64,000 nt of DNA from assembly GCA_035498875.1 (NCBI GenBank), contig DATJZP010000052.1, positions 21,823 to 85,822 on the forward strand. The letters run 5' to 3'. Each line of letters starts with the position of its first letter. Positions within the stretch are counted from its first letter, which is position 1. This document shows positions 40,701 through 46,700 of this stretch, in pieces. Made by a program: the position numbers. This DNA is from Myxococcota bacterium (GTDB lineage Bacteria; Myxococcota_A; UBA9160; SZUA-336).

Positions 40701-43700
40701 CCTTCCCCGAGCTGGCCGAGTCACTGTCGCGCGCGGGCGGGCGCTTCTCGGGTCTCTTGCTGCGAGCGCTCTTCGGACGCGGCGGCGCGCCGCGGCGCAG
40801 CATCGTCTCCACCGCCGAGGGCCTGGGCGGGCTGTGCAGCCGGCTCGCGCGCGCGCTCGGACCGCGCCTGCGCACGAACGCCCCGGTTGCGCGCGCGCGG
40901 CGCAGCGGCTCGGGCTTCGAGCTCGAGCTCGCGGGGGCCGACAAGGTGACTTGCGAGAAGCTCGTGCTGGCGCTCCCGCCCGCCGCGGCGCTGCGCGCGC
41001 TCGAGCTACCCGCGGTCAGCGCGCCGCTCGCCGCGTACCGGGCCGTGCCGCAGCTGCTGGCCGCGTTCGCGCTCGAGGAGTCGGCCTGCGCCGAGCGCTG
41101 GACCGGGCTGGGATTCCTGGTGCCGCCGCGCGAGCGATTGCCGCTGATCGGGTGTCTGTTTCCCTCGAACCTGTTCCCGGGCCGTGCGCCCGCGGGCGCG
41201 CTCCTGCTCGCGGTGTTCGCGGCGCGCGCGCTCCACGCGCTTTCGGACGCGGCGCTCGCGGCCGAGCTCGCGCCCGTGCTGCAGCGGCTGCTCGGCGCCG
41301 TGCGGGCGCCGACCCTGCTCGACGTGGCGCGTTACCCGGAGGGCATTCCGCTCTACGACCCGACTCACGCCGAACGCACGCGCGCGCTGCGCGGCCTTGT
41401 CGCGAAGGTCCCCGGACTCACGCTGTGCGGCGCCGGCTACGACGGCGTCGCCTTCGCCGCGGCGGCGGCCGCGGGCAGCGCGGCGGCGAAGCGCTAGCCC
41501 AGCGACGCGCGCTCGAGCTCGAGCGCGTGCAGCTCGAGCTCGGCCAGCGCTTCGGCGTCGGCCGCGCGGAACACCCGGCCCTGCAGAAGTGACTGGAGCG
41601 CCGGGCGCGCGCTCGGATGCTCGAGCAAGCCGAGGAATACCGGCGGCTTGCGGTAGAAGAGCAGGATCAGGTCGCGCCAGACCGTGCCCCCGCGCCGCAC
41701 CGTCTCGTCGTACTCGGCGAAGTGCTCCGCCGCGTGAGTCGGATCCGAGAGCGCCGCCCGGATCGCGTGCGCCGCGAAGCGCGCCGACTCGGCGGCGACC
41801 GAGACACCGGACGAGAAGACCGGGTCGACGAACTGCGCGGCATCGCCCAGCGCGAGCCAGCCACGGCCCGCCAGGCGCTCGGAGAAGTAGCTCTGCGAGC
41901 CCTCGACCGAGAGGCCGTGCAGCCCTTCGGCCTTGGCCATGCGTGCCGCGAGCAGTGAGTGACTCACGATGCTGCGCGCGAAGAAGCGCTCCGCGTTGTC
42001 GTCCGCGCCCAGGCCCGACTGACCCTCGCACACGATTCCCACCGAAGTGACCTCGGCGTTGATCGGGATCTGCCAGGCCCAGGCGCGCGGGGTCGAGAAG
42101 ACGTGGATGTGGATCCAGTCCGCGGTCTCCGCCGGACCTCGGTCCACGCCGCGAAACCAGCCGTGCACCGCGATCTGGTTCAGCCGCGGGTCGTTGCGGC
42201 GCGTGCGCAGCTGCCGGCCGAGCAGCGTGGCACGGCCGCTGGCGTCGGCGACGATGCGCGTGCGCAGCGTCGGCCGGCCCGTGATCGCCACCCGGACCGA
42301 GTCGGCGCCGAGCTCGATCTCGCTCACCTCGCTCGCCTGCTGGATGCGCGAGCCGCGCGCCGCCGCGTGCGCGAGCAGGAGCTCGTCGAAGCGGCCGCGG
42401 TCGACGTGATAGGTGTGGTCCTGGGCGATCCCCAGGTCCGGCATGGCGCGAAAGGGCAGCGCCAGCTCGCGCCGGCCCTGGTCGAGCGTGAACACCGCGC
42501 CCTGCTTGCGCACGAACTCACCGCGCTCGAGCCGATCCAGGAAGCCGATCTCGTCGAACACGCGCGTGGTCGAGCACACCAGTGACTCGCCGACGTGGCG
42601 GCGCGGGTGGACGGCGCGGTCGAGCAGCACGTGGTCGACGCCGGCGCCTCCGAGATAGGACGCCAGGATCGAGCCCGCGGGCCCGCCGCCGACCACCACC
42701 ACGTCGCTGTCCGGCGCGAGCGCGGCGGAGCCTCGGGCGGGGATCGCCTCCGCGCCCGTGGCCTCGGCGATGCCCATGCCTGCGAACACCGCGTGGCGCG
42801 CCGCGAGACACTCGGGCTGCGACAGGTCGCGCGGCCGCGCCAGCTCGATCGCGACCGTCTCGCGCACGCGCGCGGGTCGCGGGCTCAGCACCAGCACGCG
42901 GTCGGCGAGCTGCACCGCCTCGTCGATGTCGTGAGTCACGAGCAGGATCGTCTTGCGCTCGGCGCGCCAGATGCGCAGCAGGTCGCTGCGCATCTTGAGC
43001 CGGGTCAGGTAGTCGAGCGCGGCGAACGGCTCGTCCAGGTACAGCACGTCGGGGCTCGCGGCGAGCGCGCGCGCGATCTCCACGCGCTGGCGCATGCCGC
43101 CCGAGAGCTGTCTCGGGTACGCGCGCTCGAAACCGGTGAGACCCACGAGCTCGAGGTAGTGAGTCACCAGCCGCGCGCGCTCGTCGCGGCTCGCGCGCGA
43201 GAGACCGAAGCCCACGTTCTCGGCGACGCTGAGCCAGGGGAAGATGCCGCTCTCCTGGAACACGAAAATGCGGCGCGGGTCGGGACCGCGGACCGGCTCG
43301 CCCTGCACGCGCACCTCGCCCGAGCTGGGCCGCAGGAAGCCGCCGATCACGGAGAGGAGCGTCGACTTGCCGCAGCCCGACGGGCCGACGATGCAGACCC
43401 ACTCGCCGGGCGCGACCGTGAAGCCGACCCGGTCGAGCACGCGGATCGGCTCTGCGCCGCTGCGCGCGAACTCGACGCTGACTCCGTCGACTTCGATCGC
43501 GCTGGTCATGCTAGCCGTGCTCCACGAAGCGCCAGCGCACTGACTCCATGCGCTCGAGCCGCCGCATCGCGCCGTCGAGCAACAGCCCGATCAGACCGAT
43601 CAGGATCATGCCGGCGATCACCAGGTCGTAGCGATTGCCGGCGTTGCGCGAGTCGATGATCAGATACCCGAGCCCGGAGTGCAGCGCGATCATCTCGGCG

Positions 43701-46700
43701 GCCACCACGACCAGCCAGGCGACGCCCAGGCCGATGCGCATGCCGACCAGGATCTGCGGCAGCGCGGCGGGAAACACCACCTGGCGCAGCAGCGCCCAGC
43801 GACTCACTCCGAAGTTCTCGGCCGCGCGCAGGTAGCGCTCCTCGATCGTGTGCACGCCGGCGGTGGTCTGCACGATCATCGGAAACACCGACGAGATGAA
43901 GATCAGGTAGATCGGCGAGGCGTTCCCGACCCCGAACCACAGGATCGCGATCGGGATCCAGGCGATCGGCGAGATCGGGCGCAGGATCTGGAAGATCGGG
44001 TTCAGGGTCGTGTACGCGGCACTCACTCGGCCCATCCACAGCCCCAGCGGCACCGCGAACAGGAGCGCCAGCGAGAAGCCGATCGCCACGCGCAGGAGCG
44101 AGGCAATGATGTGCTGCGCCAGCACGCCGCTCGCCGCCAGCTCCGCCGCGCCCGTGAGCACCTGCCAGGGCGTGGGGAAGATCGCGCTCCCGGTGAGCGC
44201 CACCAGCGCCCACCACAGCGCGACCAGCGCGGCGAGCGCGATCAGAGACGGAAGTACTTGCTTCCACCGGCCCATAGCGATCTCGACCAGCTCCTCACGC
44301 GCCAGCCCAGGCGCGCCCACGGCGTCTCGGGTGCGGGCTCCACGATCACCGTGAGCTGCCCGCTCGCGTGCGCCGTGCAGGCGAAGGGATAGCTCGAAGC
44401 GGTCGCGAAAGGCAGCCGGAAGCTCTGTCCGGGCATCATCAGCGTCGGCCCGAAGATCTGCGGCACGTCGTCCAGGTTGCGCAGCAGGAGCACGTCCTGG
44501 ACGCCGAGCGTCAGGTGGATCTCGTCCGGCAGGATCTCGACCCGGTCGCCGGCCATGCGCCGCGCCCAGGTGCCCTTGGGAATCTCGAACAGCCGGTCGC
44601 GCGACGGCGCGCGCACGGGCGCCCACGCGGCCCAGGCGGCCAGCGCGCACAGGCCCCCGAGCGCCGCCGCAGTGACTCGCCGGCGCGCGCTCATGGCCCC
44701 AGCAGGATCGCGACGTCGTGCGCGAAGTCGTCGGCCGAGTGCCCGTAGGGCATCAGCGCGCGCAGCCGGCCGCCGCGGTCGATCAGATAGACGAACGAGG
44801 AGTGCGCGTACGAGTAGTCGCCACCCGAGCCCTTCTTCTCGGCGCTGACGCCGTAGTCGCGGCGCACCGCAGCGAGCCGCTCTTCGCTGCCCGTGCCGCC
44901 CAGGAAGCTCGGGTCGAAGCCGGCGAGATACTGGCGCATGCGCGCGCGGTCGTCGCGCGCCGGGTCGACGGTCACGTACACCACCTGGAAGTCCGCGCCG
45001 TGCGCGCCCAGCTTGCGCCGGGCCTCCGCCAGCGTGGCCAGAGTGACTGGACACACTTGCGTGCACGAGGTGAAGCCGAAGGCCAGCGCCACCACCTTGC
45101 CCTGGAAGCGACGCAAGAGCAGCGGCCCGCCGTCCGAGCCGTCGAGCGCGAGCTCGGGCGCGGCGCGCGGCGGCTCGAAGGCGCCCGCGCGCAGCGCGTC
45201 GGCGCGCGCGCGCGTCTCGGACGAGAGCGCCAGCACGAGTGCGCAGGCGGCCAGCGGCGCGCTACAGCGCGATCGTCGCCGGCTGGGCGCTCTCTGCAAA
45301 GCGCTCCTCCACGTAGGTCTCGTACGGGATCTCGTGCTGGATCGTGCCGGCGGCGAGCGACAGCCGCATCAGGTCCTCGAACTCCGTCCGGATCATGCGC
45401 AGGTCGCCGTAAGTCACGCGGTCGGTGGGGTGCTCCATCACGTACTGGAGGATCTTGGGATCCTGGTTGAAGAAGTCGCGCTGCGCGGCGATCTGCACCG
45501 CTTTGTCGCGGTTTCCCTGCTGGGCATCGAGCCAGTGGCCAGCGCCGAGCACCTGATTCACCAGCTCCTGCACCATCGGCGCCTGGTCGTGGATCAGCTC
45601 CTCGCGTACGGTCAAGACGCAGCAGATGTACTTCGGCCACTCGTCACGCGTCATGCGCAGCGGCCGGGCGTAGCCCGCGCTCTGCGCGGCCGCGCCGAAC
45701 GGCTCGCCCGTGCAGTAGGCGTCGACCGCGTTGGCGTAGAGCGCGGCCGGCATGTCGGGCGGTGGCATCTCGACGATCTCGAGCTCGCGCAAGTCCATGT
45801 CCTCGCGCGCCAGCATCTTGCGCAGGAACAGGAAGTCGACGGCGAAGCGGCTGGGGATCGCGACGCGCTTTCCCGAGAGCTGCTTGAAAGTCTCGACCTT
45901 CGACTCGCTGCGCACCATGATCACCGCGCCGGAGCGGTGACCCAGCGACACGATCTTCACCGGGATCTTCTTGTCGGCCAGGTCCATGACCAGCGGCGCC
46001 AGCATGTAGGCCGCCTGGATGCGACCGGACATGAGTGACTCCTTGAGCTCGGGCCAGCCGTTGTACTTGGAGTACTCGAACTGGTACTTCGGCCCGGCGC
46101 CGGCCTTCTGGCCGGCGGCGTTCGCCATGCACGCCACGGGCAGGGTCAGGTTGCAAGTCACCGGCAGGCCACCCACGATCAGGTGATTCGCCGCGTCCTT
46201 CGCGCCGGAGCAGGACCCACTCGCGAACGGCGCCGTCACCGCGATCGCCGCAGCCCCCTTCACGAACTCTCTGCGGCTCAGCATTGCGCGCGGATTCTAG
46301 CCAGGAACGGCAGTTCGTGCGCAGCTGCGACGCAAGTAAACCGGTCACCAGGCTCGGGAGTCCAACCGGCAGTGGAAATTGCGGTCGAGCGCGCGAAGGC
46401 GGACGTTCCCTCCCTGATGAGGGCCGAGGAGTTCTCGCGCTTCGCGGAGGCGCGCCGCGAGCGCGCGCTGCGCCTGGCGTTCCGGCTCTTGGGCGGCGAC
46501 CAGGCCACCGCGGAGGACGTGGTCCAGAATGCCTTCTTCCGGGCCTACCGCGCGCTGGCGAGCTTCCGGGGCGAGGCCACGCTCGACACCTGGTTCTACC
46601 GGATCCTGGTGCGCGAGGTACAGCGCCAGCGCCGCTGGCAGGGGCTGCGCCGGCTGTTCGGGGGCGATCCCGAGAGCGCGCCGCCAGCGGTCGATCCGCG

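Follow-up and report, generated by a model that had tools for sequence, protein, structure and literature searches.

We showed that, in a soil myxobacterium, the motor of an uptake pump is permanently joined to a complete halogenating enzyme, predicted to chlorinate or brominate, an arrangement that may show how bacteria obtain the halide for their natural products. The DNA concerned is a stretch of 64,000 nt (hereafter the window; G+C content of approximately 72%) from contig DATJZP010000052.1 of a Myxococcota bacterium (assembly GCA_035498875.1, positions 21,823 to 85,822), and the system in question is a minus-strand operon of five open reading frames (ORFs) at 41494..46284. It encodes an ATP-binding cassette (ABC) importer of the NitT/TauT family, whose ATPase runs on into a flavin-dependent halogenase. 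This architecture is conserved, the fusion is found in several bacterial phyla and on several ATPase lineages, the binding proteins share a signature of Cys or, probably, selenocysteine (Sec) residues, and some of the homologous loci lie within natural-product gene clusters. From these observations we infer the solute, the metal cofactor of the binding protein and the coupling of import to halogenation: the system would import a small soft anion, most likely a halide, and pass it directly to the fused halogenase, a reading to which we give a probability of roughly one in three.

All five ORFs were found where an earlier note, made from the sequence alone, had placed them. They are tightly packed in the order binding protein (NMT1-type), SCO1/SenC, divergent cupredoxin-like protein, permease and fusion protein, and the features of the operon are as follows.

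45262..46284 (-): binding protein, 340 aa (NMT1_2, Pfam E 2.6e-28)
44691..45299 (-): SCO1/SenC protein (SCO1-SenC, Pfam E 3.3e-34)
44242..44694 (-): divergent cupredoxin-like protein, 150 aa (family profile against PDB)
43511..44269 (-): permease, 252 aa (BPD_transp_1, Pfam E 5.8e-25)
41494..43509 (-): fusion gene, 2016 nt, 671 aa (ABC_tran, Trp_halogenase and FAD_binding_3, Pfam)
42769..43509 (-): ABC nucleotide-binding domain, fusion residues 1-247 (Pfam, motifs, Foldseek)
42724..42768 (-): interdomain linker, fusion residues 248-262, Ala/Gly/Pro-rich (predicted local distance difference test score, pLDDT, below 50 in AlphaFold)
41494..42723 (-): PltA-type halogenase domain, fusion residues 263-671 (phmmer, Foldseek, motifs)

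The 671-aa protein had been read as a complete NitT/TauT-type ATPase that continues into a flavoenzyme of the halogenase family, and this domain reading proved to be correct. ABC_tran covers residues 25-163 (Pfam E 7e-32), and the Walker A (GPSGCGKST), Q-loop (Q85), signature (LSGGM), Walker B/D-loop (LYLDEPFAALD) and H-loop (H193) motifs are invariant or nearly so in an alignment of 32 fusion homologues, which was the basis for judging motif invariance throughout. The structurally nearest proteins are NrtD and CmpD (Foldseek; 40-42% identity, template-modelling (TM) score 0.84-0.88). The best NCBIfam models were TauB, SaoA and NtrCD (E 1e-62 to 1e-65), all of them under their equivalog cut-offs. 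Judged by these comparisons, the domain is an ordinary NitT/TauT ATPase. The AlphaFold model of the whole fusion protein (mean pLDDT 84) comprises two well-folded domains and a disordered linker, whose length varies among homologues (alignment columns 265-318 are gapped).

The second domain matches Trp_halogenase (9e-23) and FAD_binding_3 (1.3e-17) over fusion residues 268-620 in Pfam. Its closest relatives in PDB, aligned over the full length, are ChlB4 (phmmer 3.3e-80), PltA (2e-79) and Mpy16 (4.7e-77), and Foldseek likewise placed it with PltA/ChlB4/Mpy16-type enzymes (E of about 1e-35, TM 0.83-0.85, approximately 36-38% identity). The motifs quoted in the earlier note (GGGPAGS, WAWQIPI and GDAAQFVDPVFSSGV) are present in the translation, and their columns are invariant or nearly so. 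The domain carries GGGPAG, HVGESLVC, Lys335, WAWQIP and GDAAQFVDPVFSSG, followed by a C-terminal helical region. Invariant in the 32 fusions are the FAD-binding GxGxxG (GGGPAG, residues 273-278), W477, W479, I481 and P482 of the WxWxIP motif (WAWQIP, residues 477-482), and F560, D562, P563, F565 and G568 of the Fx.Px.Sx.G motif (FVDPVFSSG); the same is true of the longer blocks HVGESLxC, WxWQIP and GDAxxFVDPxFSSG. The Lys/Glu pair of these halogenases is present as well: K335 aligns with the second Lys of FPKK(F/Y)G in PltA/ChlB4 and E308 with the Glu of GESL. Both are invariant in the fusions, and their PltA counterparts are the catalytic residues. By every sequence and fold criterion applied, the flavin domain is a full-length flavin-dependent halogenase of the PltA/Mpy16/ChlB4 type, and it is predicted to be catalytically complete. 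It reached 159.8 bits with the CmlS equivalog model of NCBIfam (cut-off 900) and is therefore not a CmlS orthologue.

A further residue distinguishes the fused domains. Cys312 (window 42574-42576), located four residues after the active-site Glu308 in the sequence GESLxC, is present in 33 of the 34 fused homologues, whereas the residue at this position in stand-alone PltA-like relatives is Pro (22 cases), Thr, Leu, Gly, Ala or Ser. A scan of 22 flanking genes (29141..41497 and 46372..58274) revealed no flavin reductase partner. In L170, one of the homologous loci that we compared (labelled L and a number), a gene of the F420H2_quin_red family lies just downstream.

The sole a priori ground for suspecting an artefact of sequencing or assembly, or a recently decayed pair of ATPase and halogenase genes merged through a lost stop codon, is the rarity of the architecture. 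An independent assembly in ENA encodes the identical 671-aa protein in the same operon. In a collection of 5.8 billion proteins, 118 of the 120 best matches carry both PF00005 and PF04820; the fused ones are 636-770 aa long, extend down to 47% identity and, where named, come from Myxococcota and Planctomycetota. A metagenome scan seeded on the flavin domain alone gave 35 fused loci out of 80, and eight further loci at 75-79% identity have kept the fusion. Moreover, the position of the flexible linker is conserved and GC3 (the G+C content of third codon positions) is uniformly 0.94 over the whole length of the fusion ORF. The earlier note had considered that orthologues might be split by a stop codon at the junction, but orthologous loci keep the fusion uninterrupted. 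The unfused relatives in Gammaproteobacteria (L015, L016, L086) have no halogenase gene after the ATPase and are therefore not split gene pairs of this kind. The independent assembly, the fused best matches and the fused metagenome loci rule out a lost stop codon, the probability of which is practically nil; since the motifs of both domains are in addition invariant, we conclude that the fusion is genuine and under selection.

Full-text searches of the literature (halogenase with transporter, fusion, selenocysteine and halide uptake) yielded no paper describing a fusion of an ABC ATPase with a halogenase, and databases contain only automatic names, e.g. 'ABC-type nitrate/sulfonate/bicarbonate transport system ATPase subunit/flavin-dependent dehydrogenase'. 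The fusion thus consists of known domains in a conserved, unstudied and repeatedly arisen arrangement, with a plausible link to the question of halide supply.

The binding protein of the operon had been described as Tat-exported, in agreement with its twin-arginine signal (SRREFVK; TIGR01409, 17.9 bits versus a cut-off of 16.7); it also has a lipobox-like Cys25. It is 100% identical to a protein of 'MAG TPA Myxococcota bacterium'. Its residues Cys44, Cys52, Cys191, Cys221 and Cys222 are all invariant in its subfamily. The nearest solved structure is the zinc-bound protein 3UN6 of Staphylococcus aureus (phmmer 4.4e-29, Foldseek 1.2e-19), whose LPITH His corresponds to Cys44 in the alignment and whose YCCVL CC pair corresponds to Cys221-222.

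Among the partners of these ATPases, three types of binding protein were distinguished by motif. Type I (GGLPVT-C-NLTLPVAC ... YICCVLTV), to which the window protein belongs, always occurs with SCO1 and a cupredoxin. Type II is characterised by GFLPVT-[U/C]-HLTCPV ... FISCVLAV (U being the probable Sec), and type III, a lipoprotein, by GLT-C-EAPIF ... EYCCAVLVNGKF and a Cys-rich C-terminal tail. All three types have the Thr-Cys and [C/S]C motifs without exception, and the alignments indicate that these binding proteins share a thiolate/selenolate site homologous to a metal site. The tails of type III (L097:6857-8083, L119:6823-8022, L105:6889-8022; e.g. DPWCSMVCCVAGDP) are additional to the common Thr-Cys and CC motifs.

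In five independent type II loci the position of Cys44 is occupied by an in-frame TGA (LPVT-U-HLTCPV). These are L001:6164-7231, L004:6161-7237, L005:4145-5200, L014 (near 7779) and L167 (near 6013). The codon is TGA in all five such loci versus Cys in 24 others, and the alignment continues on both sides of it; gene callers split these genes into an ORF of 47-51 aa and a truncated binding protein. No convincing conserved hairpin of a selenocysteine insertion sequence (SECIS) was detected in single-sequence folds or in a consensus fold of the five sequences (-2 kcal/mol). Judged by the correspondence of TGA with Cys only, the TGA-type homologues are probably an unrecognised family of selenoprotein binding proteins with a UxxxC motif. 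The window gene itself has TGC (Cys) at Cys44.

Each type of binding protein occurs with fused as well as with unfused ATPases. Unfused type I operons are abundant in Steroidobacteraceae and Povalibacter. A scan of a genome collection with the full-length alignment, although dominated by the generic ATPase pattern and thus by mostly unrelated NitT/TauT ATPases, still gave unfused operons of types I, II and III. In phylogenetic trees the window permease groups with the permeases of unfused type I (gammaproteobacterial) operons but the window ATPase nests inside the type II ATPases, which points to a swap of the ATPase-halogenase cassette. The fused type I operon of L170 has an ATPase that is 72-74% identical to unfused type I ATPases, together with a flavin domain of the same halogenase clade as that of the window (57% identity, with GESLLC). 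The ATPases of the type III fusions represent another lineage, with 44-47% identity to that of the window. By these comparisons, at least three lineages of ATPase have acquired a halogenase of the GESLxC clade, and each time the transporter has a Cys-signature binding protein. The cassette swap, L170 and the type III ATPases show that the fusion has more than one origin or has been reshuffled, and we regard it as established that selection has repeatedly favoured a physical link between ATPase and halogenase. In one genome (L002), a fused gene was also observed without adjacent binding-protein or permease genes; the next gene there encodes a 785-aa multi-pass membrane protein of MMPL/RND-like appearance with no Pfam match (L002:10052-12409).

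Recognition of the second gene as a SCO1/SenC member was upheld (PF02630, 118 bits versus a cut-off of 22.8). The protein contains CxxxC (FTSCTQVCP) and a distal His (YAHSSFVYLID), while its start could be TTG at 45299, in which case it has a signal peptide, or a codon further on, near 45236. Its presence in an importer operon had seemed unusual, and the association is real: a SCO1 gene lies between the binding-protein and cupredoxin genes in L003, L015, L016, L086-L094, L169 and L170, and binding protein-SCO1-cupredoxin-permease is a conserved module in Myxococcota and Steroidobacteraceae. An operon of this composition in L087 has no ATPase gene.

The product of the third gene, previously listed as a secreted hypothetical protein, is membrane-anchored or secreted. 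It has no Pfam or NCBIfam match above threshold. Its family comprises about 481 cluster representatives at E<=1e-3, and when the family profile was compared with PDB, all 42 matches were cupredoxins (best E 3.3e-4); Pfam Copper-bind was found in 13 of 31 members, in every case below threshold. The C-terminal motif YPFACTAHASGQL conforms to C-x2-H-x4-L (with Met for Leu in many homologues), and where an N-terminal His ligand would be usual the protein has Gln (NLDDVPQ), as do most homologues. These matches identify it as a likely divergent cupredoxin-fold protein. The permease was correctly assigned (BPD_transp_1) and contains no Cys; its best NCBIfam models (SaoP, TauC and NtrB) all scored under their cut-offs.

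In other phyla, the fused transporter is often found within carrier-protein gene clusters that contain additional halogenases. Among type II and III fused loci of at least 10 kb, 7 of 15 have further halogenase genes within 10 kb, and the cluster contents are known for the annotated loci L004, L005, L105 and L167. Both L005 and L167 encode an adenylation enzyme and at least two halogenases, together with a carrier protein (L005) or an acyl-CoA dehydrogenase (L167), which is a halopyrrole-like layout. L004 contains genes for an adenylation enzyme, a phosphopantetheinyl transferase, a FabA/ApeI-like dehydratase, an MMPL protein and two halogenases, and L105 contains those for two ketosynthases, a ketoreductase, an acyl carrier protein and two halogenases. 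In L005 and L167, a gene for an Alginate_exp (AlgE-like) outer-membrane beta-barrel is inserted between the permease and fusion genes (L005:6321-7739, L167:7750-9162), which suggests a dedicated outer-membrane entry route for the solute.

Taken together, the operon encodes one machine, a binding-protein-dependent importer of the NitT/TauT family with a halogenase as the C-terminal domain of its ATPase. Since the halogenase is carried by the ATPase subunit, each transporter would hold two halogenase domains beneath the membrane. The periplasmic binding protein would capture a soft anion (Br-, I- or Cl- being the likeliest) as a ligand of a thiolate metal site formed by Cys44 and Cys221-Cys222, probably with Cys52 and Cys191; a metal site is included in the model because zinc-bound 3UN6 has its His and CC at the corresponding positions. 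In type I systems, SCO1 and the cupredoxin-like protein might supply copper to this site or keep it reduced. The permease and the ATPase would then bring the anion in, and the fused halogenase, using FADH2, O2 and the anion, would halogenate a substrate in the cytoplasm, which is probably held on a carrier protein. When halide occupies the halogenase domain, it may in turn exert feedback on the ATPase, by analogy with the ligand-binding C-terminal domains of NrtC/CmpC.

Substrates of PltA-class enzymes are made in the cytoplasm and presented on carrier proteins, and for this reason an imported co-substrate is more likely than an imported organic substrate. An anion is favoured because the nearest solved relatives of the ATPase belong to the anion importers NrtBCD and CmpBCD. 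Halide is a plausible solute since it is the obvious ingredient that clusters of carrier proteins and halogenases must source from outside, and it is favoured further by the outer-membrane barrel encoded inside some of the transporter operons (L005, L167). It is possible, if doubtful, that the system is the first dedicated ABC importer of halide (or soft anion) to be physically wired to an anion-consuming halogenase, with recognition by a thiolate/selenolate metal site or by sulfur/selenium sigma-hole contacts.

Several points weigh against a halide importer. Pockets lined with Cys or Sec are typical of soft metals rather than of anions, and, to our knowledge, the known halogenase producers manage without a dedicated halide importer. 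Unfused binding protein-SCO1-cupredoxin-permease operons are abundant in Steroidobacteraceae with no halogenase nearby, which indicates that the solute is useful without a fused halogenase. No carrier protein, adenylation enzyme, second halogenase or natural-product genes were found near the window-type loci. Finally, neither Cys312 nor the copper-handling genes are specifically predicted by the halide model.

Alternatively, the importer might carry a soft metal (Cu, Zn, or another thiophilic metal or organometal) and the flavoprotein domain might have a redox, sensing or regulatory role, similar to the MerP-MerT-MerA relay or the SAO (selenocysteine-assisted organometallic) system. The thiolate/selenolate-rich binding protein would fit, as it matches zinc-bound 3UN6 and a SaoX-like Cys pattern (bioRxiv 10.1101/2022.07.06.499078), but the permease has no Cys with which to relay a metal. 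The adjoining divergent operon, with its extracytoplasmic function (ECF) sigma factor, Metal_resist/LTXXQ protein and MacAB-type efflux pump, also speaks for a metal, although this neighbourhood is common to close relatives only, and in other phyla the genes nearby encode halogenases and carrier-protein pathways instead of metal enzymes. The presence of SCO1 and a cupredoxin (both copper-handling) in the same operon, the invariant extra Cys312 and the unfused operons without any halogenase count in favour of a metal. Nevertheless, WxWxIP, FxDPxFSSG, the catalytic Lys and the Glu are strictly conserved down to 47% identity, which is unexpected for a purely regulatory or metal-reducing domain, and a metal importer seems unlikely. 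An organic compound, possibly thiophilic or metal-chelated, that is imported and halogenated on leaving the permease (vectorial processing) is slightly less likely still. The domain is of PltA class over its full length, including the C-terminal helical region, and this class acts on carrier-tethered substrates; L004, L005, L105 and L167 encode adenylation enzymes, carrier proteins or ketosynthases of their own, which argues for an internally made substrate; and an invariant multi-Cys/selenocysteine site is atypical of binding proteins for organic ligands. It must be said, however, that substrate channelling would lead one to expect just such a fusion of an enzyme with the motor of an importer, that NitT/TauT binding proteins also take sulfonates, taurine, thiamine precursors and pyrroloquinoline quinone (PQQ), and that the recurrence of the fusion on different ATPase lineages can be accommodated by any model in which the halogenase uses the imported solute.

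The position of Cys312, which is fusion-specific, invariant and only four residues past the active-site Glu, raises another possibility, namely that a pseudohalide or chalcogenide (SCN-, HS- or HSe-) is imported and oxidised by the flavin hydroperoxide, with Cys312 trapping the product (e.g. as a persulfide or selenosulfide). Metal-thiolate sites have a strong affinity for these anions, NitT/TauT systems often serve sulfur acquisition, and the probable selenocysteine/Cys variants of the binding protein would be in keeping with this chemistry. We consider it improbable: no sulfur- or selenium-metabolism genes are conserved nearby, and the neighbouring stand-alone halogenases (with Pro, or in one clade Gly, at the position of Cys312) and natural-product genes point to ordinary halogenation. 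Moreover, we know of no member of the PltA-type halogenase family that has been shown to oxidise pseudohalides or chalcogenides.

With PltA, Mpy16, ChlB4 and Bmp2, fusion residues 263-671 share a full-length alignment, GxGxxG, the GESL Glu, the FPKKFG Lys, WxWxIP, FxDPxFSSG and the C-terminal helical region. The fused enzyme differs from them in its covalent position behind an ABC ATPase, in the Cys of GESLxC and in a window operon that has neither a carrier protein nor an adenylation enzyme. NrtC and CmpC are ATPases of the same NitT/TauT family which also have a large C-terminal extension (chains of 660-690 residues), but theirs is a regulatory, binding-protein-like domain that binds the transported anion, whereas here it is an enzyme of unrelated fold. 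The SCO1-cupredoxin pair resembles the periplasmic machinery of CuA assembly (SCO1/SenC with cupredoxin-type partners) in that a SCO1 with CxxxC and His is found beside a probable cupredoxin-fold protein. Unlike in CuA assembly, there are no cytochrome oxidase genes, the pair is embedded in an ABC importer operon, the loop is type-1-like (C-x2-H-x4-L/M) rather than a CuA motif, and the N-terminal His is usually absent.

Two other groups of importers are related through their binding proteins. SAO likewise combines a NitT/TauT-like importer, conserved Cys/selenocysteine and CC motifs in the binding proteins and a linked cytoplasmic enzyme that acts on an unknown solute, and the SaoX Cys pattern (C50, C192, C224, C225; Haft & Gwadz, bioRxiv 10.1101/2022.07.06.499078) parallels that of the window protein. 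However, SAO occurs in strict anaerobes, includes the MerB-like SaoL, has no halogenase and carries selenocysteine in other motifs (CU in SaoB, U at the permease gate). Membership in SAO was tested and rejected: the window proteins scored 219 bits with SaoA (NCBIfam cut-off 360), 180 with SaoP (295) and 47 with SaoX (300; E 1.9e-12), and a Pfam scan of the 22 flanking genes gave no homologues of SaoL, SaoE, SaoC, SaoT or SaoD, so that this is not an SAO locus. Binding proteins similar to 3UN6 are also present in NitT/TauT importers that adjoin clade B Ni-containing carbon monoxide dehydrogenases (CODHs), whose solute is unknown and for which a metal site of two Cys and one or two His has been predicted (PMC6344411, PMC13592312). 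These importers use the same binding-protein subfamily and are genetically coupled to a cytoplasmic redox enzyme; in contrast to the fusion, the partner is CODH-like and separately encoded, and the first ligand is His, not Cys/selenocysteine.

Flavin-dependent halogenases have received much attention, both as biocatalysts and because they mark natural-product gene clusters. Hardly anyone has asked how these enzymes obtain their halide in soils and fresh waters that are poor in it. A halogenase attached to an importer would make this question directly testable, and it would be a rare case of an enzyme placed on an importer motor. Should the system prove to be a halide importer, halide acquisition would itself be a selected, sometimes selenium-dependent step in bacterial organohalogen biosynthesis. 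If the solute were a metal or a chalcogenide, the fused enzyme would perform chemistry new for its family. In addition, the finding exposes a large, unstudied NitT/TauT binding-protein subfamily with a Cys/selenocysteine metal-site signature, which connects to the SAO locus and the clade B CODH importers.

Upstream of the operon, at a distance of 87 bp from its binding-protein gene, lies a divergent operon on the plus strand (46372-52520). Its products are an ECF sigma factor, a putative anti-sigma factor, a periplasmic protein of the Metal_resist/LTXXQ kind (CpxP/ZraP-like), an outer-membrane factor and an efflux pump of the MacA/MacB type. The promoters of both operons presumably lie within the intervening region.

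46285..46371 (no strand): intergenic region of 87 bp between the binding-protein gene and the divergent ECF sigma factor gene

The synteny of the ECF sigma/Metal_resist/MacAB operon and of the hemE and protoporphyrinogen-oxidase genes on the other side extends only to the close relatives L090, L092, L094 and L169. These genes are absent from L003, L088 and L170, and the neighbourhood was dropped as a clue to function.

Elsewhere in the window, a B12-binding radical SAM enzyme (30049-31557, minus strand) adjoins a DoxX membrane protein (29625-30020, minus strand), with genes of the phosphotriesterase family, a luciferase-like monooxygenase and a family III CoA-transferase nearby; they have no evident connection to the operon. 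An apparently single ORF of 394 aa (52551-53735, minus strand) combines riboflavin-synthase Lum_binding repeats with a DHBP synthase (RibB) domain, in an order that is unusual among fusions of riboflavin biosynthesis. As to the junctions within the operon, the ATGA overlap proposed earlier as a sign of tight coupling was seen between the SCO1 and cupredoxin genes, while the remaining three differ: a single base (TAG C ATG) lies between the permease and fusion genes, and the two others overlap by about 26-38 nt. At the downstream end, the stop of the fusion gene and the end of the convergent protoporphyrinogen-oxidase-like gene (40199..41497), itself located after hemE, have 4 nt in common (window 41494-41497), which leaves no space for a terminator between them.

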